The notes under the pieces: model-generated | The model's database searches: none | What the model was told of the DNA's origin: nothing | The model's input: the letters and a program-made list of their open reading frames with translations, nothing else | Assembly: GCA_038087875.1 (NCBI GenBank) | Contig: CM075987.1 | Coordinates: 16,742,001 to 16,806,000 of the forward strand | DNA from: Malacoraja senta | Lineage: Eukaryota | Length of the DNA: 64,000 nt | Reading direction: 5' to 3' | Program-made: the position numbers and the translations under genes | In this document: in pieces, positions 10,811-57,705 of the stretch | How the letters are laid out: each line of letters starts with the position of its first letter | How positions within the stretch are numbered: position 1 is the first letter of the stretch

Positions 10811-10941
10811 ATGCCGCCCAAGAAGAAGGAGAGGCCCCTCACCCCGGTGTCGATCACCGACGAGAATGTGGAGCCGCTGACCGCCATGGAGCGGGAGCTG
10901 TACATCATCCAGGTCAAAGACCTGGAGGGCAGGGTGAACAG
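10811..10941 (+). CDS. CFAP157: CFAP157 coding exon 1 (MPPKKKERPLTPVSITDENVEPLTAMERELYIIQVKDLEGRVNR)
   Basis: GCCAACATG Kozak at 10811 with in-frame upstream stops. ELYIIQVKDLEGRVNR resembles the CFAP157 motif EFYHIQIRDLEDRLAR (from memory). AG|GTGAGC donor; 131 nt, ends phase 2. Confidence 0.9.
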
Positions 10942-11284
10942 GTGAGCGACCGGGGTCGGGTCGGGTCAGGTTTAGAGATTAGAGATTAGAGATTCCTTTA
11001 TTTGTCATTCAGACCTTTCGGTCTGAACGAATTTCGTCGGTTTAGGTTTATTATTATTGCCACCTGTGCCGATGCGCCGAGAAAAACTTGGTTGTGCATG
11101 TTGTGTTGTGCATGCTACACAATCAAATTAAATTATACCACACATGAATAAAACCAGCCAAACACAGATACAACGGGTAGAGTAATGAGAAATACACCAG
11201 AGATGGCAACGTTATTCAATGGTGTAGGAAGGAACTGCATTTGCTCTCTTGCAGGTGCTCACTCTTAACCAACGATGAAAAAGC

Positions 11285-12065
11285 GTCATCTTTGTTCTTA
11301 ACAACTTATTTGACTCCTCGTACTTCCTCCAAATCAAAGGCGTAGCTATGGGCACTCGCATGGGAGCTATGCCTGCCTCTTTTTAGGGTACGTTGAGCAA
11401 TCCCTGTTCCAGGTGTACACTGGCCCTATTCCCGAATTTTCTCCGTTACAATATCGACCGGATAGGGGCTACCTCCTGCACCCATGCAGAACTCGAGGAC
11501 TTCATTAACTTCACCACCAATTTCCACCCTGCACGCAAATTCACTTGGTCTATCTCCAACACCTCCCTCCCCTTTATTGATCTCATCGTCTCCATCACAG
11601 GAGATAGACTATTGACTATTTGGGCTACGCTTCTTCCCACCCAGCTTCCTGCAAAGGCTCTATCACCTACTCCCAATTGCGTCTACGCCATATATCTGCA
11701 CCCAAGATGAGGTGTTCAGTACTAGGACATCTGAGATGTCCTCATTCTTTTGGGAACGAGGGCCCCCTCTCTCATCATAGATAAGGCCATCACACGTGTC
11801 TCTTCAGTACCCTGCAGTATCCTTGCATCCCCCCCTCTCACTAGCCCTCCCCCACCCAAGTCGTAATAGCTTCAAAGTCGTATTGTTGAGTCCCATTTTC
11901 TGTATCTGGTTTTCACCTAACTCACAGCTAACACTGTCTATACCTCTCATTTCCCTTTCCCTTGACTCTCAGCCTGAAGAAAGGTCTCGATCTGAAACGT
12001 CACCTATTCCATTTCTCTAGAGATGCTGTCTGAGCCGCTGAATTACTGCAGCTTTTAGTGTCTAT
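11285..12065 (+). mobile_element. Decayed Penelope-like element (RT fragment plus terminal repeat)
   Basis: YFLQIKGVAMGTRMG, LRY.ID and LPFIDL-like PLE RT motifs; CTGAAGA...GAAACGTC at ~11974-12001. Confidence 0.75.
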
Positions 12066-12569
12066 TACTCAATAGTGCTTTTATTGTCACACGTGCAAAT
12101 GCACAGTGAAATTATTTTCTTACATACAGTCCAGTAGAGTATTCCCATACCCAAGCACACCTCAGATGGCAAGTGTACAGAAGTTCTCAGCATTACTGAA
12201 TATATTGGGTGGTGCAGCTGCTACCACAGTGTCAGTGCCTGACTTTAGTCCTGACCTTTATTTCTATCTGTGTGGAGTTTACACGTTATCCCTGTGACCA
12301 TGTGGGTTTCCTCCAAAGTTTCCACCAAAATGAAAAATATGTGTCGTATGTAGGATAAATGCCCTCTGTAAATTACCAGAGATGTGCATGGACAGGAACT
12401 TGACTCTCCATATCACTGTCCCACCAATAAAGATAGGTTCATGGACTCTCTCCTTTCCCTTCCTCAAGTTGACAATCAGCTCCTTGGTCCCACTTATGTT
12501 GCATCAAGTTTGTTGTTCTGGCACCACTCAACCAGATTATCCCTCCTGTACTTCGGGTTGTAATGGTGG

Positions 12570-12845
12570 CACTGCCTTACAGCGAATGCAGCGTCGGAGA
12601 CCCGGGTTCGATTCCGACTACGGGTGCTGTCTGTACAGTGTTTGTACGTTCTCCCCGTGACCTGCGTGGGGCTTCTCCAAGATCTCCAGTTTCCTCCCAC
12701 ATTCCAAAGACGTACAGGTTTATAGGTTAATTGGCTTGGTAAATGTAAAAATTATCCCTAGTGGATGTCGAATAGTGTTAATGTGCGGGGATCGCTGGCC
12801 AGTGGGCCGAAGGGCCTATTTCCATACTGTATTTCTAACTAAACT
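12570..12845 (+). mobile_element. V-domain (HE1-like) tRNA-derived SINE
   Basis: B-box GGTTCGATTCC, V-core TTTGTACGTTCTCCCCGTGACCTGCGTGGG...TTTCCTCCCACA, CR1-like 3' end, (CTAAA) tail. Confidence 0.75.
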
Positions 12846-13961
12846 ACTCTGACTCTGAATAACTACTGTTATTTTTCAACAGCAGTGGTATTGCTGGCGA
12901 CTTATAGATGGTGTCGGAGTTGTATCTGGTTACACAGTCATGAGACGTGATTTCAGGACATTTGAGGAATATAAGGTTAATGGCATATTTGCAGAGGATG
13001 GTAAAGATATGCAGGACAGATTGGAGTGACTTTGCATTCACACTGGGTCAAATATCAATACCTTTTTGAAACTTTGACTTGAAAGTCTGTGAAAATGGAA
13101 TCTGCTATAAATAGTTATGCTCAAAGCTACAATTTTATTTTGTTCTGTCAGAAATAGGAAGCTTACCAGAGGTTAACAAATAAAGATTGCACTCTGATGA
13201 CAAACAATGTCGAACTAGCAGGTTTTAGTTGATTGCCCTTCAGTGACCACAGCGCATTGTGATCACGGCACGTTGTGATCTGAAAAATAGTTGGATTGGT
13301 TGCTATTCTGTATAGTGTCACACCATACCTTATGCTGGAAACTGGGTGGATATTGGATGGAAAAAAGACTTGGGTGTAGCTTGCACTAACATTAAAATAT
13401 AACACCTCAGAGGCTACTAGTATGAAAGATCAGACGGTATTGATTAACACCAATATATCTGAATCCTGGAGTACATCTATACATTAGTGAAATTCAAGTA
13501 AACAAGAGCTTAAAGACAGTGTTAATGGCACCTGTATGGTAGGATAAATAGTAAATCACAAAGTGCTGGAGGAATTCAGTAAGTCAGGCAGCATTTGTGG
13601 AGGGAATGGACGTGCAATGTTTGGATTGTGATCTTTCTTGACACAGGATTGATCGCATTCAGTCTGAAGAAGCACCCTGACTCGAAACGCACCCTGACTC
13701 GAAACGAAACCCCCTCCACAAATGCTGTCTTACACCCTGAGTTCCTCCAGCAATTTATGTTTTGCTCATGATTGTGTCATCTGCAGTTTCTTGTGTCTCC
13801 ATTGTAAAATATATAGTTGTGCTGTGATTATCAAACTACTTTTGCAAACCAGAAAATTAAAAATCTTTAGTCATTTCTAAATAACACATTCTGTCAAGGT
13901 TTTATAACATATATATCTGTAATGTTTTTTAAATCAATAAACATCATGTGATACTGTTAAG

Positions 13962-14233
13962 GTACCAACGGAGACTGGATGAACTGGAAGTGACAAAGAT
14001 CGATGCTGATGAGAAACATGAACAATTTAGCAAAGACTTGCAAGATGTTATTGCCTACCTGAAGAAGGGCCTGAATCAGAGAATTGATGAGATTGCTGAT
14101 TTGAATGACAAGATGGTTGGTTTGATGCAAGCCAAGGAAACTGATAAGACGACTTATGAATCCCAGATGTCACAGTTGCGTCAAGAGTTTCATGAAACAA
14201 AGGATCAACTCACATCGGAGAATATGGTTTTAG
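13962..14233 (+). CDS. CFAP157: CFAP157 coding exon 2 (YQRRLDELEV...IAYLKKGLNQRIDEIADLN...EFHETKDQLTSENMVL)
   Basis: Coiled-coil; ETKDQLTSEN matches CFAP157 ETKDQLTTEN. Acceptor TTAAG| has a weak pyrimidine tract; donor G|GTACAG; 272 nt, phase 2 to 1. Confidence 0.92.
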
Positions 14234-15487
14234 GTACAGAAAATGAGGGGATATGTTATTTTTAATTTTTAAATATTGTGGATGTTTTCAGGAATAACAT
14301 TTTGTTGCATTAACAGTTAAGGTGCGGAAAACATCATTGTCATTACAATTATCATAATTGCAACTTGAAGCTCTTGTCCGTATTATAATTTTGTACATTA
14401 TTTTTACATTGTACGAGACCGAAGATCTCAGGTTTTTTTTATACCTGAATAAACATGAACTTGAATTGGTAGGGCAAGGAAAATTGCATTTATACCTGCA
14501 GCCCGAGGAGAGGAAAATATTCAGCTGAAGTTCCTTGTGTTCACTGACTTGCAATCTAAATATGTAGGAAGGAACTGCAGATGCTGTTTTAAACCGAAGA
14601 TAGACACAAAATGCTGGAGTAACGTAACGGGATAGGCAGCATCTCTGGAGAGAAAGAATGGGTGACGTTTCGGGTCAAGACTGAAATCTAAATAAATATG
14701 TTGGGGCCCCTGCATTAGGTCTTTGACCAGAGATCTAATTGGTAAAGAGCTACCGACAGCTTGATCCTTTTTGTGTGACACTAATAGTTGCCAAATTCTT
14801 TCTCCTCTTTCTTTATCCCTTTAACCTTTCCTATCCATGTACCTGTCCAAGTGTATTTTAAATATTGTTATAATAGTTCTGCCTTTGAAAGTTGCAGAAT
14901 ACACATGGTACAGGCTATAAGAAAGAGTTAAAGATAAATACTTGCACTTGTTCTATCTCATTGCAAACTTAGAGTATAGAAGTAGGATTAAATCTTGAAT
15001 TTGCTGTGCCATTTGGCAAGATGAAGGCTTGTTGCAGTGTCTCAATTCCTGTGTATTTTTTTTAACCACCTCTGACCCCACACATCCCATGAATCGCTTG
15101 TGTAGAAAAATCTATGAATATCATTGTTATATAGTGACTACATCCACAGACTGCTGAGGTTCAGAGCTTCAATTTTTACAACCCTCTGCATGTAAGAATT
15201 GTACAAATTGCCTCCTTGGCCATCCTAGATGGCTAACCTATAACACTTACCCTAGCTCCAACGCTCCCTGGTTTTGTACCATTCCCGATCAAACTGGTAG
15301 CAATCTGCCCCAACATTTGGACAAAGGAGTGGAAATTAGTGCCCTTTTCATAGAGAAATTGGGGGTCTTTTTTAACATAGTCAAAGATAACATTGTGCAT
15401 GGATATGTGGCAGAAATGCCACTGTCATGGTTATGATGGGATTTTATCAGGAATACTGACTTCAGTTCTTCCGTTCTTGCCTTGCAG

Positions 15488-15641
15488 CTGGAAAGCTTGA
15501 TGCGCTGGAGGAGTTTCGAGTTCAAAAGGAGGATTTGATGGCAAAGTTTGCTGCACTTGAAGAGCAGCTAAAGCAGCAGGAAGAAGAGCACAGTGACATC
15601 ATTTACAACTTGGAGAGGAGGGCAGTGGTAGATAAAGATAG
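15488..15641 (+). CDS. CFAP157: CFAP157 coding exon 3 ([52 protein letters not shown])
   Basis: TTCTTGCCTTGCAG| acceptor and AG|GTAAAA donor; 154 nt, phase 1 to 2. GKL.ALEEFR and YNLE...V.DKDR motifs of CFAP157. Confidence 0.92.
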
Positions 15642-16382
15642 GTAAAAACTTTTATACCTAGGTTTTCAGGAAACCTTTGCAAGTCTAGACAAAGTGGCAT
15701 AATGTATTTTGGCATGAACAGCAGGTTGACAGCCAATTGACTGAGATATTTTGCAGTTAGTTTGCACACAGACACTTGCCATCCAGGTCTGGGAATGAGA
15801 ACTCTTAACTAATATATTTTTTCTCAACTACTCTAATTGTTACACCACTCATCTCTTATAAATGGGAAAATAAACAGTGTGATGCCAGGGTGAAGTATGA
15901 CGTTTTTGCCTATAATTTGTTTTACTGGATCCACTCCAAGAGCAATTGATGCTGTAATTGGATGCCTGAGGCTTGGTTCCAATTTCCAGTTTGAGGCAAA
16001 TAAAATATAAAGTGTTCATGCAATTTGTGGATATTTCATTTAGCATTCCCCTTGAGTTTTCCATCCCTATATTAAAGCATTGGTCTGGATATTGAATCAC
16101 TGTCAAGTTTGGTCACAATCATGCGCTGTTCCAGTACCTTCAAAGATTGCCTGCTAACGGTCTGAAAAAATCTGCCGCATCATTTTGCAAAAACTGGAAA
16201 AAAAACTGCTCATGCTGGAAATCTAAAATAAAAACTGAATCTACTTGGAGAGGAAAAACTCAGGAAGTCATTGCAACATCTGAAGGGTCGCAGACCTGAT
16301 ACATTGACTTTTTCTTTCCACAGATGTTATCTGACCACCGTAGTTCTTCCAGGATATTCTATTTTTTAATTCAGCTGGCATA

Positions 16383-18004
16383 CAGTGGCTTGCAAAAGTA
16401 TTCATACCCCTTGAACTTTTCCACATTTTGTCACGTTACAACCACAAACGTAAATGTATTTTATTGGGATTTTATGTGATAGACCAACACAAAGTGGCGC
16501 ATAATTGTGAAGTGGAGTGGAAGGAAAATTATACTAGGTTTTCAAATTTGTTTACAAATAAAAAACTGAAAACTGTTGCGTGCAAAAGTATTCAGCCCCC
16601 TTTACTCTGATACCCCTAAATAAAATCCAGTGCAACCAATTGCCTTTAGAAGTCACCTAATTAGTAAATAGAGTCCACTTATGTGTAATCTAATCTCAGT
16701 ATGAATACAGCTGTTCTGTGAAGGCCTCAGAGGTTTGTTAGAGAACATTAGTGAACAAACAGCATCATGAAGCCCAAGGAACACACCAGACAGGTCAGGG
16801 ATAAAGTTGTGAAGAAGTTTAAAGCAGGGTTAGGTTATAAAAAAATATCCCAAGCTTTGAACATCTCACGGAGCATTGTTCAATCCAACATCCGAAAATG
16901 GAAAGAGTACGGCACAATTGCAAACCTACCAAGACATGGCCGTCCACCTAAACTGACAGGCCGGGCAAGGAGAGCATTGATCAGAGAAGCAACCAAGAGG
17001 CCCATGGTAACTCTGGAGGAGCTGCAGAGATCCACAGCTCAGGTGGGAGAATCTGTCCACAGGACAACTATTAGTCGTGCACTCCACAAATCGGGCCTTT
17101 ATGGAAGAGTGGCAAGAAGAAAGCCATTGTTGAAAAAAAGCCATAAGAAGTCCCGTTTGCAGTTTGCCACAAGCCATGTGGGGGACACAGCAAACATGTG
17201 GAGGAAGGCGCTCTGGTCAGATTAGACCAAAATTGAAGTTTTTGGCCTAAATGCAAAACGCTATGTGTGGCGGAAACCTAACACTGCACATCACCCTGAA
17301 CACACCATCCCCACTGTGAAACATGGTGGTGGCAGCATCATGCTGTGGGGATGCTTTTCTTCAGCAGGGACAGGGAAGCTGGTCAGAGTTGATGGGAAGA
17401 TGGATGGAGCCAAATACAGGGCAATCTTGGAAGAAAACCTGTTAGAGTCTGCAAAAGACTTGAGACTGGGGCGGAGGTTCACCTTCCAGCAGGACAACGA
17501 CCCTAAACATACAGCCAGAGCTACAATGGAATGGTTTAGATCAAAGCATATTCATGTGTTAGAATGGCCCAGTCAAAGTCCAGACCTATATCCAATTGAG
17601 AATCTCTGGCAAGACTTGAAAATTGCTGTTCACAGACGCTCTCCATCCAATCTGACTGAGCTTGAGCTATTTTGCAAAGAAGAATGGGCAAAAATTTCAG
17701 TCTCTAGATGTGCAAAGCTGGTAGAGACATACCCCCAAAAGACTTGCAGCTGTAATTGCAGCGAAAGGTGGTTCTACAAAGTATTGACTCAGAAGGGCTG
17801 AATACTTTTGCACGCGACACTTTTCAGTTTTTTATTTGTTAAAAATTTGAAAACCATGTATCATTTTCCTTCCACTTCACAATTATGCACCACATTGTGT
17901 TGGTCTATCACATAAAATCCCAATAAAATACATTTACGTTTGTGGTTGTAACGTGACAAAATGTGGAAAAGTTCAAGGGGTATGAAAACGTTTGCAAGCC
18001 ACTG
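16383..18004 (+). mobile_element. Full-length Tc1/mariner IR/DR transposon (Passport-like) in CFAP157 intron 3
   Basis: TA|CAGTGGCTTGCAAA...TTTGCAAGCCACTG|TA; ~220-bp TIRs; central transposase. Confidence 0.95.
16767..17787 (+). pseudogene. Tc1 DD34E transposase with one nonsense codon and one +1 frameshift
   Basis: MKPKEHTRQVRDKVV...GRPPKL...WSD*TK (TAG 17223-17225)...FQQDNDPKH...SPDLYPIEN. An extra C near 17732-17736 precedes KRLAAVIAAKGGSTKY*. Confidence 0.92.
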
Positions 18005-18656
18005 TACATAGATTCCTTTATTGCAGCTAATCACGGTCCATATTTGCCAAGGACACTTTAAACCAATGTTATGTCTCCATGTCAGAATTTTTAATGTCAA
18101 TTCTCATCTGAATGCTCATCTATAGAAGAGCCCAACTAAAGAGTTTAATTTCAGATAGACACAGGATGCTAGAATAACTCAGCACGTCAGGTAGCATCTC
18201 TGGAGAAAAGGAATAAGTGACATTTTGGGTCGAAACCCTTCATCAGACCGTTATTAGTTGAATTTCAGCATAGTGTGAACATGTAATCACTATCTGATTT
18301 TTGGAAGTACAGGTTATCATTTGCAAAACCACTGCAGTGCAAGTTAGTTTCAAGGCCATAAGCTTTGTCAATTGTTTTGTTTGCAGCAATTTTTCAAGTT
18401 TTGTGCCCAAGACCTAAATGCAAAAGATTATTTTATACTAGAGAAGGAAAAGAGGAGCAGGTAAAGCAATATGGTTAAAACTGATCCTAGTCTCATCTAA
18501 TCTTCAAGTGTGTATCAATGAGTTACTGGACAGTGAACAGACAGTTGGAAAATATGATTGTGGGTTTCACTTCCTCCTTCACTAAACTGGTACTAATCCA
18601 ATTGGATCATCAGAAAGCATGTTGACTATCTGTCACTAACTGCATTCTTCCTGTAG

Positions 18657-18923
18657 ATTAAAGAAGGAGATGATTGCAGCGGTGAATGCGGTGGCTGCTG
18701 AATTCCGTCGTATTTCAAAGAAGCAAGTGGCAGAAACAACAAAAAGAGCCATACGTGAAAATGTATCCATTAGCAGCCAGCTGGGAAGATGTCAGATAAA
18801 AGTATGAAAATAAATCAAGAGAATGACGAACTGAAAAATGAAGCCTTGAGGCAGTGGAGAAACATCAATATCTTGGAGGAAAGTCAGAAGGAGCTGATCA
18901 GGAAGAATCTCAGCAATGTAAAG
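18657..18923 (+). CDS. CFAP157: CFAP157 coding exon 4, one base missing near 18784 (LKKEMIAAVNAVAAEFRRISKKQVAETTKRAIRENVSISSQL/KMSDKSMKINQENDELK...LSNVK)
   Basis: TTCTTCCTGTAG| acceptor, AAG|GTTTGT donor, ETTKRAI.EN motif. As written the frame hits TGA at 18805-18807; adding 1 nt in CTGGGAAG restores homology and the phase 0 exit. Confidence 0.88.
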
Positions 18924-19129
18924 GTTTGTATATTTCTTTTTGGGAAGAGATAGTCCAGTGAGTGCACGAAGTGAAGGGCTTGTTTGTAGTAACACTGTCT
19001 TGTATATATTCAGCACTTTTAAACAAGACTATTTCTGTGAAGCTGAGCCAAAAAAAGATGTAAACAGTGTGAAAAGAAGCAGCTGGTTATCTTGTAGAAG
19101 GCAAATGCATAAAATCCTACAGCACAGAT

Positions 19130-19865
19130 ATCCTACCGCAAAGACCGCTCCCTCCGTAACTCCCTTGTCATTCTTCCCTTCCCTCCCATACCACCCCCTC
19201 CCCTGGTACTTTCCCTTGCAACCGCAAGAGATGCAACACTTGTCCCTTCACCTCCCCCCTCCACTCTATTCAAGGACCCAAGCAGTCGTTCCAGGTGTGA
19301 CTGAGGTTCACCTGCATCTCCTCCAACCTCATCTATTGCATTCGCTGCTCTAGATGCCAGCTGATCTACATCGGTGAGACCAAGCGGAGGCTTGGCGATC
19401 GTTTCGCCGAACACCTCCGGTCGGTCCGCAATAACCAACCTGAACTCCCGGTGGCTCAGCACTTCAACTCCCCCTCCCATTCCGTATCTGACCTCTCTGT
19501 CCGGGTCTCCTCCATGGCCACAGCGAGCAACACCGTAAATTGGAGGAAATGCACCTCATATTCCGCTTGGGCAGTCTACATCCTGGTGGCCTGAACGTTG
19601 AATTCTCCCAATTCTGCTAGCCCTGGCTGTCCCCTCCCCTTCATCAGCCATCTGGTTGTCTACTCCCCTCCCCCAGCCCTCGGGCTCCTCCCCGCCTTTT
19701 CCTTTTTTTCCTTTCTTCTTCCCACCCCCTATCAGTCTGAAGAAGGGTTTTGGCCTGAAACGTTACCTATTTCCTTCGCTCCATAGATGCTGCTGCACCC
19801 GCTGAGTTTCTCCAGCATTTTTGTGTACCTTCGATTTTCCAGCATCTGCAGTTCCTTCTTTAACA
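19130..19865 (+). mobile_element. Penelope-like element 3' portion (GIY-YIG endonuclease plus terminal repeat)
   Basis: RFTCISSNLIYCIRCSRCQLIYIGETKRRLGDRFAEH...HLIFRLG; hammerhead-like core at 19737-19765. Confidence 0.88.
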
Positions 19866-21894
19866 CAGATAGAGGCTTATTGTGCTTGTACCATGCTCAA
19901 TGGGTAAAAGCAATCTAATTAACCCACACCACACCCTGCCCTTCACAGACCCAAAATGTTCTCTTGTCCAGTTTAACAATCTTAAAAGCCACCACAGTTG
20001 GTATGGCTGCTGCAAGTTATATTACTGGTCTAGTAATCCAGAAGTTCTTGCGTGATCCAGAGAGTTGTGTTCCAATCTCATGATAGTAATTGGTAATTTG
20101 GATTATCAAATAAGGATCCACTAGATCATTGTAAAAAGGAAAGGAAAATGGTGAAGCTGTTCTGGCCTGTTGATGATTGCGCACTAATGTGATGGACTCC
20201 CAGCTGCTATGTGGCATAAATCAGTCTTGAGATGTAGTCAGTTGGTGAGGCCAATATTTAATGCACATCTCTAATGGCTCCTTTGTAAACCACCATCATT
20301 GATTTGTATATTTTTCTGTGTCAACGTAGCTAACAGCTCGGCACGAGTGGTGTAAAGCAAGGAGTTTCAGGCCTTTGACAGTGATGAACACTCATGTACT
20401 TCCATTTCAAGTTAGTGTATGCCTTGTAATGGAACTTACAATGGAATCTGCCATCTTTCTAGTTACCAATACCATATGTGAGGGAGGTATCAAATACTGG
20501 AGAATCTAAAGTAAGAATTAAATCAGACCTATCATGGCACCTGATACATTCACAGCTCTGCAACGTCCTAATTTCTAACTGTGAGAAATAAGTGCCATAA
20601 TTAGGAGAGATCTTCAACGTACGTGGCAAACAATGGCTTGACTTGATCACCTCTGTAGAAACATACCATTATGTCAATCCACTGGACTTTCCATTAGCAT
20701 CCCTTAAAAACCTATCGGGCTGGTGGTACAGCTGTATATAGTTGGCTGAAATGCGGAATGCGGACAAGTGGGAATGTTTTTACTATACAGACAGCAAGGA
20801 TGTGGTTGACCATCAGAATCCTTGGTATGGCAGCTACATGGTTGTAAAATTTATGAACCTCTCTAAATCTCTCATCTTTCTTTGTTTTGGAAGGATCTGC
20901 CTTCACTTCCATCCATCTGCCGAGTTAATAGGAATCTGAGGGGTAACCTTTTCATACAAAGGGTGGTGTGAGTATGGAACAAGCTGCCAGAGGAGGTAGT
21001 TGAGGCAGGGACTATCCCAACATTTAAGAAACAGTTAGACGGGTAGAGATGGATAGGACAGTTTTGAGGGATATGGGTCAAATGCAGGCAGGTGGGACTA
21101 GTGTAGCTGGGACATGTTGACTGATGTGGGCAAGTTGGGCCAAAAGGCCTGTTTCCACACTGTATCACTCTTTGACTTTAAGAGCCAAGAATTAGACATG
21201 AAGCTTCAACTGAGTGTGGACTAACAAATTGCAGAGTTCATATATTATGTCTTTTTATAAGATTCTGTTCATGGGTTCTAATTTTCTGTTTCTCGCACTT
21301 TTCAAATTGTACCATTTAGTTTGTGTTACTACAATTTGTCATCCACACTTCCATATGAAAGTTTTAGTTGTTGCATATCTTCACAAGTTGATTTCACCAA
21401 TTTGTATGCTCCTGAAATCTGCAACTATTCATGACACTCCTTATTGTTACTTTCAATTTCATTTCAGAAACCAACTTAGAAATTGTGCCCAGTGTGTGAT
21501 TAGTTTATTGCAGTAGTTCGGGTTGGGGGCAGAGGAAGGTGGGGGGCTGGTGTTGGTATCCCCCTCGATCATTCAACATTTGGACATTTCCTTCCAATCT
21601 ATTAAACAGGTATCATAATTGCTACTTACTGCTTTTTAAATAGTATCTGTTGCCACTATCTCTTTAGTCTCGTGGGGTTCATTTTTGCTGACATTTCTGA
21701 CGTGCTGTGTTTGCCTTTTTGACAATCAAAGCAACATGTACTTCAAACAACGCAATTGGCAAACCTCTTTCTGCCTTCATTCTTTAAGGATGGTTTATTT
21801 TCAGGAATATCCACTTCCCTGTTTTTTCCTATTGATCTTACCATGGAAAAGTATCTTCTCCATGCCTGACTGGATTCTATTGATTGAATTTCAG

Positions 21895-22026
21895 GTTGTT
21901 CAAATGCTGGCTGAGAAATGCAAAGAGCAGCAGAAGTCACTGGAAAGCTGCACGCAGAGGGAGAAGATGGTTCAAGAATTTGAGATAACAGTAAAAGACC
22001 TTGAGGGCTCAGAATGAATCTCTAAG
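21895..22026 (+). CDS. CFAP157: CFAP157 coding exon 5, one extra base at 22005-22007 (VVQMLAEKCKEQQKSLESCTQREKMVQEFEITVKDLE/AQNESLR)
   Basis: TTTCAG| acceptor, AG|GTATTT donor; ML..KC.EQQ motif. Removing one G from GAGGGCT gives 131 nt and the phase 2 that exon 6 needs. Confidence 0.85.
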
Positions 22027-22706
22027 GTATTTGCAACTCCATCCATGTGCACTACCAGATGCGGGAACTGCTTTTCTCCACTGTTACCAGACTTCAGAAT
22101 GATCCCTCCATAAGCTAGGGTACTTTACGATTCTCCTCTACCCTATGTGGACATTGGACATTGTTTCTGGAACTGTTGTGCTACAATGCCAAGAACAATA
22201 TTCTGCACTCTGATTCTTCCCTTTGCTTTACTTATTCTACTTGAATTTGTCTTGATCGTATTTATTATGATCGTATTATCTTAATTTGATTTGATTGGAT
22301 AGCATGCAAAACAAAGCTCTTCCCTGTACCTTGGTGCACGTGACAATAATAAACCTAAACCTTGTGTGGGCTTTGACAACTAAATATTAGATATTAGATT
22401 AGATAGTTTTATTTTCATTTTATTTCTTAAAAACATCACTGCCACAAGTAAGATCTTCCTTGCTTCTGAACCCCAGTAAGTCATTATCTTAAATGTGGAA
22501 ATTAATTTCTCTACACTTCAGGGAACAAACTGATCAACCTAAGGATTATTAGGGAGAGTTAAGTCTTAACACTCGAGGGAGGATTAGAATATAGTATTTT
22601 GAGATGGTTATGGTCTTACTAAATGTGGGAAGTTGGAGTTACTGAAACTTAATATTGAGTAACTTTATTTAAAGAAGGCTGTTATCTCACTATGTTTAAT
22701 GTTCAG

Positions 22707-22857
22707 GAATGAAATAACATCTGTAAAGGAGGATCTGGAGATAAAACAATTTCATCTGGAAAAACAGATGGCCAATGCGGAACAACAGGAAAGGCGCAGG
22801 AAGCAGGTGGAGAAAGTCCTCTCTGATGCTGCCTATGCTTTGAAAGATGCCCTGCTG
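22707..22857 (+). CDS. CFAP157: CFAP157 coding exon 6 (NEITSVKEDLEIKQFHLEKQMANAEQQERRRKQVEKVLSDAAYALKDALL)
   Basis: GTTCAG| acceptor, CTG|GTAAGA donor; 151 nt open coiled-coil, phase 2 to 0. Confidence 0.85.
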
Positions 22858-23214
22858 GTAAGAAAGCTTACATTTTGAGAGTAGACCTATTTGGATGACA
22901 AATGCATGACATCTTTTTGAAAGCTGATTGGTGGCTGAAAGCTGCTTTCTGTTCTTGCACCCTTATTTGGTTTTGTTCAGTTATGTTGTCCACTACAACA
23001 ATGCACCCATATTTGTCCTTCTTCTTGGTGGCATGGAGTATATAGATTAGTACAAAACGAGAACAGTCAAGGGTATTGTCACATGTCCCAGAGAGAACAA
23101 TGAAATTCTTATTTGCAGCAGCACAACAGAATATGTAAACATAGTACACTGTAAACAATATAATAAACTAAAAACAAGTTGGTGCATGTATGCATGTATG
23201 CACACACATACATT

Positions 23215-23600
23215 AAATATATATATATATATATTATATAGAGATAGAGAGATAGAGAGATAGAGAGATAGAGAGATAGAGAGATAGAGAGATAGAGAGA
23301 TAGAGAGATAGAGAGATAGAGAGATAGAGAGATAGAGAGATAGAGAGATAGAGAGATAGAGAGATAGAGAGATAGAGAGATAGAGAGATAGAGAGATAGA
23401 GAGATAGAGAGATAGAGAGATAGAGAGATAGAGAGTAGAGAGATAGAGAGATAGAGATAGAGAGATAGAGAGATAGAGAGATAGAGAGATAAGAGAGATA
23501 GAGAGATAGAGAGATAGAGAGATAGAGAGATAGAGAGATAGAGAGATAGAGAGATAGAGAGATAGAGAGATATAGAGATATAGAGATATAGAGATAGATA
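23215..23600 (+). repeat. (TA)n followed by a long (GAGATAGA)n octamer microsatellite
   Basis: About 360 bp of 8-mer repeat adjoining the CR1 3' tail; source of the spurious LSISLSLY ORFs. Confidence 0.95.
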
Positions 23601-26600
23601 CAAAATAGGTGCAGGAGTAGGCCATTCGGCCCTTCGAGCCTGCACCGCCATTCATATGATCGTGGCTGATCATCCAACTCAGTATCCCATACCTGCCTTC
23701 TCTCCATACCCCCTGATCCCTTTAGCCACAAGGGCCACATCTAACTCCCTCTTAAATATAGCCAATGAACTAGCCTCAACTACCCTCTGTGGCAGAGATT
23801 GTTCCAGAGATTCACCACTCTCTGTGTGAAAAAGTTTTTCCTCATCTCGGTCTTAAAGGATTTCCCCTTATCCTTAAGCTGTGACCCCTTGTCCTGGACT
23901 TCCCCAACATCGGGAACAATCTTCCTGCATTTAGGCCTGTCCAACCCCATAAGAATTTTGTACGTTTCTATAAGATCACCTCTCAATCTCCTAAATTCTA
24001 GCGAGTATAAGCCAAGTCTATCCAGTCTTTCTTCATATGAAAGTCCTGACATCCCAGGAATCAGTCTGGTGAACCTTCTCTGCACTCCCTCTATGGCTAT
24101 AATGTCCTTCCTCAGATTTGGAGACCAAAACTGTACGCAATACTCCAGGTGTGGTCTCACCAAGACCCTGTACAACTGCAGTAGAACCTCCCTGCTCCTA
24201 TACTCCAATCCTCTTCCTATGAAGGCCAACATACCATTCGCTTTCTTCACTGCCTGCTGCACCTGCATGCCTACTTTCAATGACTGGTGTACCATGACAC
24301 CCAGGTCTCGCTGCAATCTCCCCATTTCCTAATCGGACACCATTTAGTTAATAGTCTGCCTTCCCCGTTTTTTGCCACCAAAGTGGATAACCTCACATTT
24401 ATCCACATTATACTGCATCTGCCAACATTTGCCACTCACCCAGCCTATCCAAGTCACCTTGCAGTCTCCTAGCATCCTCCTCACAGCTAACACTGCCCCC
24501 CAGCTTAGTGTCATCCGCAAACTTGGAGATGTTGCTTTCAATTCCCTCATCCAGTTCATTAATATAAATTGTAAATAGCTGGGGTCCCAGCACTGAGCCT
24601 TGCGGTACCCCACTAGTCACTGCCTGCCATTGTGAAAAGGACCCGTTTACTCCTACTCTTTGCTTCCTGTTTGCCAGCCAGTTCTCTATCCACATCAATA
24701 CTGAATCCCCAATACCGTGTGATTTAAGTTTGTATCTAATCTCTTATGTGGTACCTTGTCGAAAGCCTTCTGAAAGTCCAGATGCAACACATCCACTGGT
24801 TCTCCCCTATCCACTCTACTAGTTACATCCTCGAAAAATTCTATAAGATTCGCACGATTTTACCTTTCGTAAATCCATGCTGACTTTGTCCAATGATTTC
24901 ACCACTTTCCAAATGTGCTGCTATCCCATCTTTAATAACTGACTAGCAGTTTCCCCACTACCGATGTTAGACTAACTGGTCTGTAATTCCCCGTTTTCTC
25001 TCTCCCTCCCTTCTTAAAAAGTGGGGTTACGTTTGCTACCTTCCAATCCTCAGGAACTACTCCAGAATCTAAAGAGTTTTGAAAAATTATCACTAATGCA
25101 TCCACTATTTCTGGAGCTACTTCCTTAAGTACTCTGGGATGCAGCCTATCTGGCCCTGGTGATTTATCGGCCTTTAATCCATTCAATTTACCCAACACCA
25201 CTTCCCGACTAACCTGGATTTCACTCAGTTCCTCCATCTCCTTTGACCCGCGGTCCCCTGCTATTTCCGGCAGATTATTTATGTTTTCCTTAGCGAAGAC
25301 GGAACCAAAGTAGTTATTCAATTGGTCCACCATATCCTTGTTCCCCATGATCAATTCACCTGTTTCTGACTGCAAGGGACCTACATTTGTTTTAACTAAT
25401 CTCTTTCTCTTCACATATCTATAAAAACTTTTGCAGTCAGTTTTTATGTTCCCTGCCAGTTTCCTTTCATAATCTATTTTCCCTTTCCTAATTAAGCCCT
25501 TTGTCCTCCTCTGCTGGTCTCTGAATTTCTCCCAGTCCTCTGGTATGCTGCTTTTTCTGGCTAATTTGTACGCATCATCTTTTGCTTTGATACTATCCCT
25601 GATTTCCCTTGTTATCCACGGATGCACTACCTTCCCTGATTTATTCTTTTGCCAAACTGGGATGAACAATTTTTGTAGTTCATCCATGCAGTCTTTAAAT
25701 GCCTTCCATTGCATATCCACCGTCAACCCTTTTAGAACTAATTGCCAGTCAATCTTGGCCAATTCACGTCTCATACCCTCAAAGTTACCTTTCTTTAATT
25801 TCAGAACCGTTGTTTCTGAATTAACAATGTCACTCTCCATCCTAATGAAGAACTCAACCATATTATGGTCACTCTTGCCCAAGGGGGCACGCACAACAAG
25901 ACTGCTAACTAACCCTTCCTCATTACTCAATACCCAGTCTAGAATAGCCTGCTCTCTCGTTGGTTCCTCTACATGTTGGTTTAGATAACTATCCCGCATA
26001 CATTCCAAGAAATCCTCTTCCTCAGCACCCCTGCCAATTTGATTCACCCAATCTATATGTGGATTGAAGTCACCCATTATAACTGTTTTGCCTTTGTTGC
26101 ACGCATTTCTTGTTGCACGCATTTCTAATTTCCTGTTTGATGCCATCCCCAACTTCACTACTACTGCTAGGTGGCCTGTACACAACACCCACCAGCGTTT
26201 CTGCCCCTTAGTGTTTCGCAGCTCTAACCATACCGATTCCACATCCTCCAAGCTAATGTCCTTCCTTTCCACTGCGTTAATCTCCTCTCTAACCAGCAAC
26301 GCTACCCCACCTCCTTTTCCTTTCTCTCTATCCCTCCTGAATATTGAATATCCCTGGATGTTCAGCTCCCAGCCTTGGTCACCCTGGAGCCATGTCTCCG
26401 TGATCCCAACTATATCATAATCATTAATTGCTATCTGCACGTTCAACTCATCCACCTTATTACGAATGCTCCTTGCATTGAGACAGAAAGCCTTCAGGCT
26501 TGTTTTTACAACGCTCTTACCCCTTATACAAATATGTTGAAAAGTGGCCCTTTTCGATTTTTGCCCTGGATTTGTCTGCCTGCCACTTTTACTTTTCACC

Positions 26601-26789
26601 TTGCTACCTATTGCTTCCGCCCGCATTTTACACCCCTCTGTTTCTCTGCTCACCCATTTAAGAACCCCACCACCTCTTATTCTCTGTTTATTATTGTTTT
26701 TTTCTTTCCCCCCTACATGTTGGGTCTGAGTGCTTTCCTTCTCTGCCTCCTGCCTCACACACTGTCTAATAGCATTCTCTATTTGAGTC
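23600..26789 (-). mobile_element. Young CR1 LINE spanning all of ORF2 (APE endonuclease plus RT), many small indels
   Basis: ORF 24932-26758 has NARSI, GITETW, MGDFN, SDH, then RT pieces at 24408-24698 and 23780-24325. Confidence 0.95.
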
Positions 26790-27832
26790 TATTAATGTGC
26801 TGGGGCATATCAGAGATGTTCAGGCCCAGGAACTTAAAGCTGTTCACTCTCTGCGCCTGAATGCCGCAGAGAAGAGGTACATGATCCCTCAACTTTCCCT
26901 TTCTGATGTCACCAGTCAGCCCTTTGGTCTTGCTGATGTTGAGAACAACACTGTTCTGGCACCACTGCCACCTTCATCAAAACTGGGAAAGAGAAAACAA
27001 GTTGCATTAAGGTACAGACATTGGTGAGGATGGACAGGTGATGCCAGGGTTACTGCAGTAATATGTTTATGAAACAATCTTGTTCATTTATTAATGAGGG
27101 CCATTGTGGAGATAGTGAATCAGCTCTCTACTCATTCTGCTGCCACCCATTGACACAAGGGATAGTTAGAGTAGTTATTGAAGCTACCAGCACGTCATGG
27201 GATGTGGAAGGAAAACCGAGCACCAGTGGGAAACCCTCATAGTCACAAGGAGAATGCGCAAACTCCCATATCATCAGTACTGAAGGCGAGGATTGAGTCT
27301 GGGTTGCTGGGTGACAATAACTGTGCCCATATAGCCTCACCCTGTCAAAGATATTCCTTGTGCCCTATCCATCCATTCGCTCTCCTCTCAGTAAGTTGAA
27401 AAATTTAAAAGCCAAACATGCTGGAAATCTGAAATAAATAAAAATTACTCAGCAGGTTATGCAGCATCTGTTGGAAGAGAAACAGAAATCAATATTTTAA
27501 GCTTAAACTCAATTTCCAATTTTGATGTGGGGTCTTGACCTGAAACATTGTTTTGCATTTCTCAGAGCTGCCTTTAGCCTCATTGGTTTGTACCATTGTT
27601 TTTTTAGTGTTAGGGATTGTGTCAAATTCCCAGTCCTTAGAGCCCCATGAATGTCTATTATTATAGACTTTTTTTAAGTGATTTCTACTGTGAAGGTCGA
27701 TCCCAAATAATTATTTAGAAACTTTGATTGTGTTGGAGGCTTAAGGGAGACCTGTTAAAAATATATAAAATAATGAGAGACATAGACTGGATAGAAAATC
27801 TGAACCTTTTTCCCAGGGTAGAAATGCTAAAG

Positions 27833-28122
27833 ACACGGTGGCGAGGTACAGTTGCTGCCTTACAGCGCCAGAGACCTGACTACGAGGTGCTATCTGTACA
27901 GAGTTAGTTTGTTCTCACCATGATTGTGTGGGTTTCCCCAGGAGCTCCGGTTTCCTCCCACATTTCAAAGACGTTCAGGATTGTAGGTTATTTGGTTTGG
28001 TTAAAAATGGTAAATTGTCCGCAATGTGCTTATGTTAGTGGTAATGTGTGGGGATCGCTTGTCGGCACAGACTCAGTGGGCCGAAGTGCCTGTTTCCGTG
28101 CTGTATCTTCAAACTAAACTAA
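27833..28122 (+). mobile_element. V-domain (HE1-like) SINE
   Basis: Homologous to 12570-12845; (CTAAA) tail. Confidence 0.7.
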
Positions 28123-28526
28123 AGGACATACCTTAAAGGTGAGAAGAGCAAAGTTTAAAAGAGATGTGCAGGGGCAAGTTTAACACAAGTGAAACTTGGG
28201 GCAAGTGAAGGCAGATACAGTAGTGGCTTTTAGATAGGCACATTTAAGAGGCTTTTAGATAGGCACTGATATACATGTGATGCATATGATCAAGTACAGA
28301 GATTAGTAAACTTGGCATCATGTGCCTGTGCCTGTCCAATTCTAGGTTCTCAATTATTTCTCTTTTTCTGATCATTAATTATCTCAAAGATGCTAATGTT
28401 TACTTCAGCTAAACATTTCTTTTGTAGATAGAGTTGAAGCTCATCCTATTTGTCTTTATATAGTTTCCTGACATTTCCCAAGACATTATCAGTCACTGTT
28501 AATGAAGGCTTCTTTTTCCTGAACAG

Positions 28527-28603
28527 AGCAACTATACTGATGAACTTGAAATCTTGGTGGAAATAGAAGAACATTATTTAACCCTGGACCTCCAAAGAAA
28601 TCA
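28527..28603 (+). CDS. ADAM metalloprotease (ADAM15-like) prodomain exon A (SNYTDELEILVEIEEHYLTLDLQRN)
   Basis: TCTTTTTCCTGAACAG| acceptor, CA|GTGAGT donor; 77 nt, phase 0 to 2. L.L.L.RN motif of the reprolysin propeptide. Confidence 0.8.
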
Positions 28604-28684
28604 GTGAGTAAAGAGATGTCTGGTCTATATCTGCAACATTTTGTGCCTGACAACAGAAATTTCGATCCTGCCTCAACTTTTAAG

Positions 28685-31795: not shown

Positions 31796-31859
31796 GGAAA
31801 TCAATGGTTAAAATGGCTGAAGGGCTTGCTTGCATAAAATCCACCTGTTTCGTTAACAG

Positions 31860-31938
31860 GTTCCTCATTCCAGAAACGTTTCAGGTATCGTACTATGATG
31901 CTAATGGAACTTTGGCAACGGAAGAAAACAGCACCTTG
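31860..31938 (+). CDS. ADAM prodomain exon B (QFLIPETFQVSYYDANGTLATEENSTL)
   Basis: GTTAACAG| acceptor, TTG|GTGAGA donor; 79 nt, phase 2 to 0. F...YY..NGT motif typical of ADAM prodomains. Confidence 0.85.
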
Positions 31939-40668: not shown

Positions 40669-40745
40669 AATCGATGTTATTATGAGGGGACGGTGCGAGG
40701 ATATTTTGGTTCCCAAGTCGCAGCAAGTATATGTTCAGGACTCAG
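40669..40745 (+). CDS. ADAM prodomain exon C (NRCYYEGTVRGYFGSQVAASICSGL)
   Basis: TTTTGTCTTTAG| acceptor, AG|GTGAAT donor; 77 nt, phase 0 to 2. CYY.G.V.G...S....S.CSGL is the hallmark ADAM propeptide motif. Confidence 0.92.
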
Positions 40746-41650: not shown

Positions 41651-42513
41651 CGCCGAAGCACTCAGATGAAATCCATGCAATCACAGGAAGAACGTGTAAA
41701 CTCCTCACAGACAGCACTGGGATTCAGTATTGAATCTGGCTCACTCGAGCTGTGAGATAGTAAGCCTACTAGCTGCGCCACGGTGCCACTCTTAAACATA
41801 AAGTACAAAACAAATGCTCAAATGTTTGGAATGGGTCAGTAGGGTTTTAAACATATTTTATTACTTGAGCCAGGGCACATCATTGAATGTTTTATCTGAA
41901 CACTTGTACTTGGTCTGCCAAGGCTTTCTGCCAGTTGCTAACCACAATTAAGGGTGGTGGGTATATGGAACGAGCTGCCGGAGGAGGTAGTTGAGGCGAA
42001 TACTATCATAATGTTTAAGAGACATTTGGACAGGTACATGGATAGGATAGATTTATTATTTAGAAAGGATCGGTTTCCCATACTGTCCTTCTGTCCTGGG
42101 CCTCTTCTATTGCTAGAGTGAGGCCAGATGCAAACTGGAGGAACAGCACCATATAGGGTCACGTGATAGGAGCAGAATTAGGCCATTCAGCCTTTCAAGT
42201 CTGCTCTGCCATTCAATCATGGCTGATCTATCTCTCCCTACTAACCCCATTCTCCTGCCTTCCCCCTATAACCCCTGTCACCCCTACTAGGCAAGAATCT
42301 ATCTATCTTTGACTTAAAAATATCTATTCACTTGGCCGTCACAGCCTTCTGTCGCAATGAATTCGACAGATTCACCACCCTCTGATTGAAGAAATTCCTC
42401 TTCATCTCCTCCCTAAAGGAAGCTCTAATGTTCCGTAGAATTGCTGGAAGGGAAGTTCAAGTTCACATTTATTGTCACATGCCCCAATTGGTACAGTGAA
42501 AATTGAGTTACCA

Positions 42514-51460: not shown

Positions 51461-51499
51461 TTCGTGTCAATGTTCGCTCTGAAGACATTTCCAGCACAA

Positions 51500-54715: not shown

Positions 54716-55210
54716 TCGGTCCTAAAAGACTTCCCCCTTATCCTTAAACTGTGACCCCTTGTTCTGGACTTCCCAACATCGGGAACAATCTTCCTGCATC
54801 TAGCCTGTCCAACCCCTTAAGAATTTTGTAAGTTTCTATAAGATCCCCCCTCAATCCTCTAAATTCTAGTGAATACAAGCCGAGTCTATCCAGTCTTTCT
54901 TCATATGAAAGTCCTGCCATCCCAGGAATCAGTCTGGTGAACCTTCTCTGTACTCCCTCTATGGCAAGACTGTCTTTCCTCAGATTAGGAGACCAAAACT
55001 GTACGCAATACTCCAGGTGTGATCTCACCAAGACCCTGTACAACTTCAGTAGAACCTCCCTGCTCCTATCCTCAAATCCTTTTGCTATGAATGCTAACAT
55101 ACCATTCGCTTTCTTCACTGCCTGCTGCACCTGCATGCCTACTTTCAATGACTGGTGTACCATGACACTCAGGTCTCGTTGCATCTCCCCTTTTCCTAAT
55201 CGGCCACCAT
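54716..55210 (-). mobile_element. CR1 ORF2 C-terminal fragment
   Basis: ORF 54744-55241. Confidence 0.88.
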
Positions 55211-56151
55211 CTAAACCTTTCCTATCCACGTACCTGTCCAAGTATTTTTTTTAATGTTATAGTTTCGGCTTCAACTACCTCCTCCAGCAGCCTATTTCAA
55301 GTATCCACCACCCTTTGTGTGGAGAAAGGTTGACCCTCAGATTGTCCACTGATTCTTGATTCCCCTACTCTGGGTAAAAGGCACTTGTGCATTTACCCTG
55401 TCTATTCCCCTCAAGATCTTATACAAGATCACGATCACCTCTCCTCCAACGCTCCAAGGAATACAGTCCTAACCTGCCCAACCTCTCGCAATGGTTCGGG
55501 CCCTCTAGTCCTGGCAACATCTTCGTAAATCTTCTCTGCACTAATTGACCAAAATTGAACACAATACTCCAAATGTGGCCTCATCTACATCTTGTACAAC
55601 TGTAACTTAACATCCCAATTTCTATACTCACTGCCCCATGATGAAGGTCTATGATTCAAAAGCCTTCTTGACCTATCTACCTGTAATGCCACTTTCAAGG
55701 AACTATGTACCTGCACTCATCGATCCCTCTGCTAACACCACTCCCCAAAGTCCTTCAATTCACTGTCATTGGAATAAATTCCTACCCTGCCAACCTTTCC
55801 CAAAAGCTCAGTTCAGGCCCTCAAGTTTTGGCAACATCCTCGTAAATCTTCTCTGTGTTCTTTCTAGGTTAACAACATCTTTCCTGTGGGAGGATGCCCA
55901 AAACTGAACACAATACTCCAACTGTGGCCTCACCAGTGCCTTGTGCAACTGTAACCTCTCCCTGTAGCCCAGACCCTCTAGCCCTGGGAACATCCTGAGC
56001 TACAGGGAGAGGTTGGGCAGGGTAGGACTGTATTCTTTGGAGTGCATGAGGATGAGGGATGATCTAATGCAGGTATATAAAACATGAGGGGAATAGTTAG
56101 GTTAGATGCACAGTCTTTTACCTAGAGGAGGGGAATCAAAAACTAGAGGAC

Positions 56152-56560
56152 ATAGAAACATAGAAAATAGGTGCAGGAGTAGGCCATTCGGCCCTTCGAG
56201 CCTGCACCGCCATTCAATATGATCATGGCTGATCATCCAACTCAGTATCCTGTACCTGCCTTCTCTCCATACCCCCTGATCCCTTTAGCCACAAGGGCCA
56301 CATCTAACTCCCTCTTAAATATAGCCAATGAACTGGCCTCAACTACCTTCTGTGGCAGAGAGTTCCAGAGATTCACCACTCTCTGTGTGAAAAATGTTTT
56401 TCTCATCTCGTTCCTAAAGGATTTCCCCTTAATCCTTAAACTGTGCCCCCTTGTCCTGGACTTCCCCAACATCGGGAACAATCTTCCTGCATCTAGCCTG
56501 TCCAACCCCTTAAGAATTTTGTAAGTTTCTATAAGATCCCCCCTCAATTTTCTAAATTCC
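56152..56560 (-). mobile_element. Young CR1 3' fragment
   Basis: ORF 56242-56571; (TTTCTATG)2 tail. Confidence 0.9.
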
Positions 56561-57542
56561 TGCGAGGACATAGGTTTAAGGTGAGAGGGGCAAGATTCAG
56601 TAGTAATCTGAGGGGCAACCTTTTCACAGAGGTTTGCGGTGTATTGATCGAGCTGCCAGAGGAAATTGTTGAGGCAGGCACCTCAACAATGTTTAAAAGA
56701 CATTGAGACAGGTACATGGATAGGAAAGGATTAGGGGGATATGGGCCAAGATGGGAATGGCTTAGATTAACTTTAGTGCTGTTCATTGCTCCCCTATCCT
56801 GTCACATCTTAAATCTAACGTACATTCTCTGTTTCCCAGTACTGCAAGGAGTATTTGGTGTGAAATATGAACTTTAATTTAGAAGGCTTCCAAGATGGCG
56901 CTCAACCCAGTTGACTACGTGCTAGCCACAGAAGCAGATCGACAATCACATATTGAATTCGCTCCACACTCTTAAATCTCTGCACTGTAAATGGCTTGAT
57001 TGTAATCATGTATTGTCTTTCTGCTGACCGGATAGAACACAACAAAGCTTTTCACTGTACCTCGGTACACATGACAATTAACTAAACTGAATTTCTTTCC
57101 ACAGATACTTCCTGACGCTACGTGTTTCTAGTATTTTCTGTTTTAATTTCAAATTGTGAGAGTGGTCTGTCTAGATTTTCAAGTACCTGCGCATGTTGTT
57201 GTGCACTCTTATCAAGAAACATCAGTTCCGTACATTTATTACTTAACTGCCACATTGTCTTTTATTACCTTAAACCACCTGAACACAAGACCAGGGAGAA
57301 ATAACGTACAATATTTATTTATTGACATTTGCATCAAGAGTGGTTGACATTTTTGTTTTTAAAGATCATTTGAGGATGGAGGTGGCGACAATGGTGATGT
57401 TTGAACCGTCAAAATAGCTGTGTTTGCAGTAAGTGAGAGTCCTTGGTGGGACTGCAAGTTCATAAATGTCCTCTGTGGCATTATTCCAGTCAGTGTCCAA
57501 CAGAGAGCTAATCCTCATCTTTTTCTCTTTTGTTGGAGTCAG

Positions 57543-57705
57543 TGCTCTAATTATTCTTACGAATGAGAGTTATGTTATTGAGCATCTTGAGGGAGTTGGA
57601 CATGGTTACCACCTGGCAATTAAATCTGAGCATGTGAAGTTAAAGGAGAAGAAGTGCAGCAGCAGCAGGCGCCTAACTGCTGAACGTCCTCAACGGCCAA
57701 TTCGG
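57543..57705 (+). CDS. ADAM prodomain exon D (SALIILTNESYVIEHLEGVGHGYHLAIKSEHVKLKEKKCSSSRRLTAERPQRPIR)
   Basis: Pyrimidine tract ending TCAG|, CGG|GTAAGC donor; 163 nt, phase 2 to 0. SY.IE.L and H.... motifs, a cysteine-switch-position Cys and a basic end approaching the furin site. The gene presumably continues beyond the window. Confidence 0.85.

Follow-up and report, generated by a model that had tools for sequence, protein, structure and literature searches.

A CFAP157–ADAM juxtaposition in the skate Malacoraja senta is probably a repeat-mediated assembly misjoin

Six exons of the gene CFAP157 that run in phase into an ADAM protease gene lacking its first exons could represent a chimeric gene, a nested gene copy or an error of assembly. 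This question is raised by a 64,000-nucleotide stretch of the skate Malacoraja senta, hereafter the window (NCBI GenBank assembly GCA_038087875.1, contig CM075987.1, here scaffold C11; C11:16742001-16806000, plus strand). The assembly comprises 1.94 Gb in 6182 sequences, and scaffold C11 has a length of 28,494,315 bp. An earlier note, made from the letters of the window, proposed three explanations: a fusion of CFAP157 and ADAM, a partial CFAP157 copy inside a long ADAM intron whose first exons would lie upstream, or a misjoin inside a long interspersed nuclear element (LINE) that it called CR1. The note leaned toward the latter two. We consider it very probable that the juxtaposition is a repeat-mediated misjoin or mis-orientation in the assembly and neither a chimeric gene nor a nested partial copy; the leaning of the note is therefore supported for the third explanation and not supported for the second.

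The exons of CFAP157 were located in the window by tblastn with the proteins P0001 (528 residues, transcript-derived), P0002 (A. radiata), P0003 (Rhinoraja) and P0005 (Pristis), and those of ADAM with P0031 (Leucoraja erinacea) and P0032 (A. radiata) as references; exon borders were set by reading the splice sites on top of the tblastn matches. The four CFAP157 queries place residues 1-357/369 in six plus-strand exons. A database search returned 30 proteins at E<=0.001, the top ones of which carry the name CFAP157, and the homology to annotated CFAP157 holds over its conserved, N-terminal coiled-coil region. Over 353 aligned residues, exons 1-6 are 92.6-92.9% identical to the CFAP157 of two other skates. 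The reading of the junction given in the earlier note is correct at both borders: exon 6 of CFAP157 ends in phase 0 at 22857 (CTG/gtaaga, where the slash marks the exon border), and the next plus-strand exon, which begins in phase 0 at 28527 behind a cag acceptor, is a real ADAM exon. The four ADAM exons of the note are all present, and a fifth, which it had not counted, lies further downstream in the window. Moreover, the window contains neither the head of ADAM nor the tail of CFAP157, as had been claimed. In tblastn searches of the 64-kb window, the first 79 residues of P0031 (exons 1-2) had no match, and the approximately 160 C-terminal residues of CFAP157 had no match better than E=1.

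The missing halves of both genes are found elsewhere on the same scaffold. When the whole assembly was searched with P0001, all 10 of 10 matches fell on C11; seven of them are the window exons on the plus strand, and the other three, which cover residues 358-528, are CFAP157 exons 7-9. The latter lie on the minus strand at C11:16201737-16208695 and are separated by 544 kb from exon 1, which is to their right. Exons 1-6 and these three exons at C11:16.20 Mb together cover 524 of the 528 residues of P0001, and each part of CFAP157 is single-copy in the assembly. A search of the same scope with P0031 placed residues 1-45 at C11:17300442-17300573 and residues 44-81 at 17295956-17296069, both on the minus strand. 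These ADAM exons 1 and 2 are separated by 525 kb from ADAM exon 3, which lies to their left and on the opposite strand; exon 2 ends in phase 0 at CAG/gtaaag, and we read the hydrophobic N-terminus encoded by exon 1 as a putative signal peptide. The genome-wide search suggested in the earlier note for the C-terminus of CFAP157 and the N-terminus of ADAM thus locates the main copy of each once on C11, on the strand opposite to the window exons. The order along C11 is CFAP157 exons 9-7 (minus), 544 kb, CFAP157 exons 1-6 (plus), ADAM exon 3 onward (plus), about 525 kb, and ADAM exons 2-1 (minus). Nowhere in the assembly did we find a collinear transcription unit with all coding exons of CFAP157, or a signal-peptide exon upstream of the ADAM body on the same strand. 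As laid out on C11, neither CFAP157 nor ADAM is transcribable, and both genes are restored only by separating the piece with CFAP157 exons 1-6 from the ADAM body at the window junction and turning each of them. We read the non-collinear CFAP157 as a fault of the assembly and not as a property of the gene.

Both displaced halves lie close to scaffold gaps. To the left, 200 N at C11:16212795-16212994 are 4.1 kb from CFAP157 exon 7, and to the right, 200 N at C11:17295584-17295783 are 173 bp from ADAM exon 2. The window itself contains no N, and no run of N was found in the 114 kb around it (C11:16732001-16846000). Because the other two adjacencies of this odd layout fall at gaps, they are decisions of the scaffolder and not sequence. 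At the right gap, the preceding contig breaks off some 150 bp inside the 3′ end of a LINE-tail repeat, which is 92.7% identical to the other copies of the LINE tail in the window and is oriented like the junction LINE; the contig that follows the gap begins within another high-copy element. A repeat-bounded contig end of this kind is what a collapsed repeat leaves behind when it is not resolved. At the left gap, both flanking ends are single-copy to the last base. When the gap-flanking ends were searched against the whole assembly for overlapping contigs, their unique parts returned only self-matches. The missing halves are thus single-copy and lie about 0.5 Mb to each side, on the opposite strand and at gaps, in agreement with the misjoin that the earlier note had listed as its third explanation.

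The third adjacency, that between CFAP157 exon 6 and ADAM exon 3, lies within high-copy repeats that total approximately 3.7 kb. The earlier note described this 5.7-kb interval as occupied by a microsatellite, a CR1 element and repeats; the repeats are there, and the interval resolves into 216 unique bases, a unit resembling a short interspersed nuclear element (SINE), the microsatellite and a LINE. The SINE-like repeat R1 is a complete unit of about 165 bp that ends before the microsatellite in seven of seven copies. The microsatellite is probably the tail, with its 8-bp unit, of the minus-strand LINE, as suggested by its position beside the 3′ end of that element. The open reading frames (ORFs) of the LINE lie on the minus strand at 23780-24328, 24408-24743 and 24932-26788. 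A sister copy at 8463-10103 matches RVT_1 (E=2.5e-32), and the family is very dense here, with several further copies in the window. On the ADAM side, a whole-assembly DNA search with 26791-28526 returned only the self-match outside query positions 1132-1428. An older repeat split by the LINE would prove that its flanks were once contiguous; we looked for one, and R1 proved to be complete. We also compared the window with sequencing reads. The read run X1 provides the best cover of window positions 18650-28640 (0.76 of the sampled words, at a depth of about 28); other read runs cover only 0.13-0.42 of the sampled words there, which may be largely repeats, and X2 and X3 derive from relatives that are about 5% diverged. 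Contigs of X1 and X2 reach only as far as about 23100. The junction lies inside repeats that are longer than its unique anchors, and the true partners of the two pieces lie at contig ends, as is expected of a misjoin.

The linkage of the two genes in related species points in the same direction. CFAP157 is located on a contig of 31,195,906 bp in A. radiata and on one of 30,087,308 bp in Rhinoraja. The A. radiata ortholog of ADAM is located on a contig of 193,168,304 bp, together with a relative, labelled 'ADAM12-like', of the ADAM paralogs that cluster at C11:17.51-17.77 Mb, and a stingray relative lies on a 203-Mb contig. Because the two A. radiata contigs differ, CFAP157 and ADAM are unlinked in that species, and conserved linkage breaks where the window junction lies; the comparison of synteny proposed in the earlier note thus finds the two genes on different A. 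radiata chromosomes. Furthermore, CFAP157 exons 6 and 7 are joined in P0001 and in P0002, and the Leucoraja protein P0031 joins ADAM exons 1, 2 and 3.

These observations bear directly on the proposal of a functional chimera, in which residues 1-369 of CFAP157 would be spliced in frame to ADAM from residue 80 to its end under the CFAP157 promoter. The two pieces share a strand, a phase-0 border meets a phase-0 border, and the donor and the acceptor both conform to the consensus. However, the rest of both parental genes is found intact at other places, and the product would carry an ADAM ectodomain with glycosylation sequons and no signal peptide; the four sequons listed in the earlier note (NYT, NGT, NST and NES) are all found in the translations. 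In addition, all of the evidence for a misjoin counts against a chimera, and we give this proposal hardly any credence. The fusion envisaged in the earlier note has no support other than compatible phases, given that the remainders of both genes lie elsewhere, that relatives join each gene in the normal manner and that the frameshifts of CFAP157 resemble consensus errors. A related and likewise very improbable possibility is that the junction is real and records a LINE-associated rearrangement through which CFAP157 intron 6 received an ADAM-cluster block that came from another chromosome, producing the in-frame arrangement CFAP157(1-369)::ADAM(80-end). If this were true, the junction would represent a gene under a ciliary/testis promoter, together with a reciprocal arrangement of the ADAM head and the CFAP157 tail, and it would be a very recent natural disruption of two genes, or an exon shuffle, seen before decay.

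The two frameshifts that the earlier note had seen in CFAP157 are present. In exon 4, the run GGGAA at 18783-18787 is short by one base, and in exon 5, the run GGG at 22005-22007 has one surplus G. Over 11003-16404, the X1 contigs show 0-1 differences from the window. The X1 contig over 18219-19021, which includes exon 4, has 804 letters compared with 803 in the window, with one gap and five other differing letters. At 18679-80, X1 reads CG in place of GC (Arg in place of Ala), and at 18814, it reads T in place of A (Ile in place of Asn); the X1 residue is that of the other skates in both cases, and X2 and X3 read alike. Two further X1 contigs differ from the window by gaps and by no substitution: four gaps over 19983-20951 and five over 21152-22146, the stretch with exon 5. 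The frameshifts are probably errors because differences that consist of indels only are the product of an uncorrected long-read consensus; from the letter counts of the X1 contigs and the sequence context, both are probably homopolymer consensus errors. As a separate observation, the patch that appears unpolished (18679-18680, 18814 and 19983-22146) adjoins the suspect junction, and its last part shows 4-5 indels per kb relative to X1.

The state of the coding sequences is also relevant to the proposal that exons 1-6 are a partial, decaying copy of CFAP157 in or beside ADAM and that the true 5′ half is missing from the assembly. The two frameshifts are what such a copy might be expected to carry, and partial duplicates do exist in this genome; for instance, the unplaced contigs C4355 (15955-16086) and C4465 (18525-20483) carry diverged copies of ADAM exons 1-2. 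Nevertheless, exons 1-6 occur only once in the 1.94 Gb of the assembly, reads of this species depart from the window toward the intact form, and the window exons have normal single-copy depth (about 28 in X1) with no second variant. Moreover, exons 1-6 diverge from other skates as much as exons 7-9 do. Their identity to the outgroup Pristis is 81.9%, compared with 84.1% and 83.9% for two other skates, a deficit that is partly due to intron read-through in the patchwork translation and to consensus errors; for exons 7-9, the identity is 74.3%, compared with 71.3%. All nine exons of CFAP157 are open except for the two 1-base homopolymer changes, and to judge from their sequences, CFAP157 and ADAM are free of decay beyond these two frameshifts. 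Finally, the first exons of ADAM, which the earlier note would have placed upstream of the window, lie 525 kb downstream on the minus strand. A nested or adjacent partial copy is consequently highly unlikely.

A real rearrangement, peculiar to this species or individual, that cut CFAP157 intron 6 and ADAM intron 2 and left both genes truly broken, perhaps in the heterozygous state, is a further possibility, which we regard as unlikely. Such a rearrangement may have taken the form of two adjacent inversions with a common breakpoint or of an ADAM-cluster block inserted from another chromosome. In its favor, both frameshifts are located in the 5′ half of CFAP157, and the ADAM cluster lies on another chromosome in A. 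radiata, so that a change of linkage, real or artificial, exists on C11. Heterozygous breakpoints can also end contigs. However, a real rearrangement requires three new adjacencies, of which two are scaffold gaps and the third lies within 3.7 kb of repeats, and it has left no decay other than two homopolymer indels, where reads of the same species contradict the assembly.

Several points weigh against our preference for a misjoin. The junction lies in gap-free contig sequence, as a real rearrangement would have it, and the assembler must have had some read path across it. The single-copy ends at the left gap could equally mean that the scaffolder cut a real contig, and a real rearrangement in the heterozygous state would produce gaps in an identical pattern. 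The ADAM model of A. radiata lacks exons 1-3 and is silent on the linkage of head and body. The attribution of the frameshifts to error stands on the letter counts and context of the X1 contigs and not on the exact gap sites, and X1 may represent the assembled animal or possibly another individual.

In spite of these points, a repeat-mediated misjoin remains our preferred explanation. The positions of the pieces, the gaps, the junction repeats, the openness and conservation of the exons and the local disagreement between reads and assembly were observed directly, whereas a false join, created when LINE copies mispaired, is what we infer. According to this explanation, CFAP157, with nine exons, and ADAM would be separate, intact and ordinary genes in the real genome. 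CFAP157 intron 6 and ADAM intron 2 would both hold similar LINE copies, and others may lie at the far end of each piece of about 0.5 Mb; the assembly graph would have collapsed these copies and a single wrong path would have been followed through them, which would account for all four orphan ends. A noisy long-read contig would have been joined wrongly through the young 3.2-kb LINE and its microsatellite tail (window approximately 23074-26790), which would have set CFAP157 exons 1-6 beside ADAM exon 3 and those that follow. The true continuations, CFAP157 exons 7-9 and ADAM exons 1-2, would have been left as orphan contig ends, which the scaffolder would then have set about 0.5 Mb to each side behind 200-N gaps and in the opposite orientation. 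The LINE at 23607-26790 is the likeliest place of the false join.

The locus resembles other repeat-mediated chimeric contigs and mis-oriented scaffolds in that the junction falls in a young high-copy LINE, the orphan ends are located at gaps, the consensus contains local errors and the linkage is at odds with that of a related chromosome-level genome. It differs from them in that the false join is inferred and not seen in spanning reads, and the crossover would lie somewhere within 23074-26790. Compared with annotated CFAP157 (P0002 of A. radiata and the proteins of other cartilaginous fishes), the gene is here split between the two strands, with 544 kb between its two pieces, and its 5′ piece carries two 1-base homopolymer frameshifts. 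Compared with P0031 and P0032, the ADAM exons are 85-100% identical, and the head of the gene (exons 1-2) is 525 kb away on the other strand. The features of the window on which this account is based are listed in Table 1.

Table 1. Exons of CFAP157 and ADAM in the window and the components of the interval between them (window coordinates; a slash marks an exon border).
Feature	Position	Strand	Remarks
CFAP157 exon 1	10811..10941	+	97.7% to P0002 residues 1-44 (tblastn); from ATG; end AG/gt splits an Arg codon
CFAP157 exon 2	13962..14233	+	94.6% to P0001/P0002 (tblastn); 96% in database search; splice context
CFAP157 exon 3	15488..15641	+	96% to P0001 residues 123-174; splice context
CFAP157 exon 4	18657..18923	+	two tblastn pieces in different frames; 1-base deficit
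CFAP157 exon 5	21895..22026	+	tblastn frame change; one extra G
CFAP157 exon 6	22707..22857	+	92-94% to P0001/P0002; phase 0, donor CTG/gtaaga
CFAP157 intron 6 start, single-copy, 216 bases	22858..23073		only self-match in whole assembly; covered by X1, X2 and X3 contigs
R1, SINE-like high-copy repeat	23074..23235		40/40 scored non-self matches begin at window 23062-23091; 7/7 fetched copies align from 23074
Microsatellite (ATAGAGAG)n	23236..23598		45.6 copies, 363 bp; Tandem Repeats Finder (TRF)
5′-truncated LINE of a young, very abundant family, about 3.2 kb	23607..26790	-	endonuclease and broken reverse transcriptase ORFs; Exo_endo_phos E=3e-10
ADAM intron 2, distal part	26791..28526		mostly single-copy; old SINE-like repeat at 27834-28123
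ADAM exon 3	28527..28603	+	prodomain; NYT; acceptor cag/AGCAACTAT, starts in phase 0; matches P0031 residues 80-105
ADAM exon 4	31860..31938	+	prodomain; NGT, NST; 87.5% to P0031 residues 104-135 (tblastn)
ADAM exon 5	40669..40745	+	prodomain; 93% to P0032 residues 37-66 (tblastn)
ADAM exon 6	57543..57705	+	prodomain end; NES; single Cys; 88% to P0031 residues 155-212
ADAM exon 7	60349..60414	+	metalloprotease domain start; 95.7% to P0031 residues 211-233; past the end coordinate of the earlier note

The nearest proteins to the ADAM gene are the Leucoraja protein P0031, annotated 'ADAM15-like', and the A. radiata protein P0032, annotated 'ADAM19-like'; the name ADAM15 used in the earlier note is therefore an annotation label only, and the assignment to the ADAM family stands. 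A Pfam search of P0031 and P0032 identified the propeptide (PF01562), Reprolysin (PF01421, E=1.6e-52), Disintegrin (PF00200) and ADAM_CR (PF08516) domains and an EGF domain, and the short window exons, when searched alone, gave no Pfam match. The splice context supports ADAM exons 3-7, which align to residues 80-233 of P0031, and the Reprolysin domain of that protein begins at residue 221. The gene extends beyond the window end to at least C11:16841214, and at least 13 of its exons are open in this genome. A scan of the plus-strand ORFs of the window for HExGH returned nothing; the catalytic exon is located beyond the window. There, at approximately C11:16817211-16817354, 11 kb past the window end (residues 342-389 of P0031), the zinc motif reads AHGIGHNLGIEHD. 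The consensus of active M12B proteases is HExxHxxGxxH. In all three skates, that is, in this genome, in Leucoraja (P0031) and in A. radiata (P0032), HGIGH replaces HExxH, and because the catalytic Glu is thereby replaced by Gly, a change shared with non-proteolytic ADAMs, the skate ADAM is probably a conserved non-proteolytic member of the family. The model P0032 starts in exon 4 and lacks exons 1-3, and its residues 62-89 are translated from the intron upstream of exon 6 (window 57481-57542). Because P0032 is incomplete, it permits no judgement on the linkage of the ADAM head and body in A. radiata.

The diverged copies of the ADAM head mentioned above consist of an exon 1 copy on C4355, which is 80% identical and contains an in-frame stop, and an exon 2 copy that is 94% identical at the amino acid level. 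We considered whether C4465 and C4355 are haplotigs that show the true ADAM intron 2 and rejected this idea, as their DNA identities of 90-93% and 77-83%, with differences that are mostly substitutions, indicate paralogous fragments; the extension of C4465 consists of high-copy transposons and is uninformative on that intron. A cluster of ADAM paralogs, with exons that are 32-56% identical and lie on both strands, is located at C11:17512705-17771968, 0.7-1.0 Mb to the right of the window. ADAM intron 5 contains two adjacent copies of a retroelement pol gene on the plus strand (42439-44663 and 45426-47416), which are broken into several ORFs and match RVT_1 (E=1e-17) and the integrase core rve (E=6e-10). 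In CFAP157 intron 3, a DNA transposon is represented by a pair of transposase ORFs at 16755-17801 on the plus strand (DDE_3, E=4e-11), which lies between two arms that contain ORFs, are nearly identical and are inverted relative to each other (about 16344-16610 and 17861-18103). With regard to the assembly as a whole, scaffold C1 measures 396 Mb, about twice the largest contigs on record for two other batoids (193-203 Mb), and this size may hint at further large-scale problems of scaffolding.

In the region of 16.2-17.3 Mb, about 1 Mb or more of C11 has probably been placed in the wrong order or orientation, and a gene predictor run on this assembly could output a false CFAP157–ADAM fusion and call CFAP157 a pseudogene. 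CFAP157 reportedly has a role in the formation of the flagellum in the mouse. The biological interest of the locus is small, both genes being ordinary. Were the junction real, the locus would offer a rare and fresh case in which two conserved genes were broken and recombined in frame by a single rearrangement.

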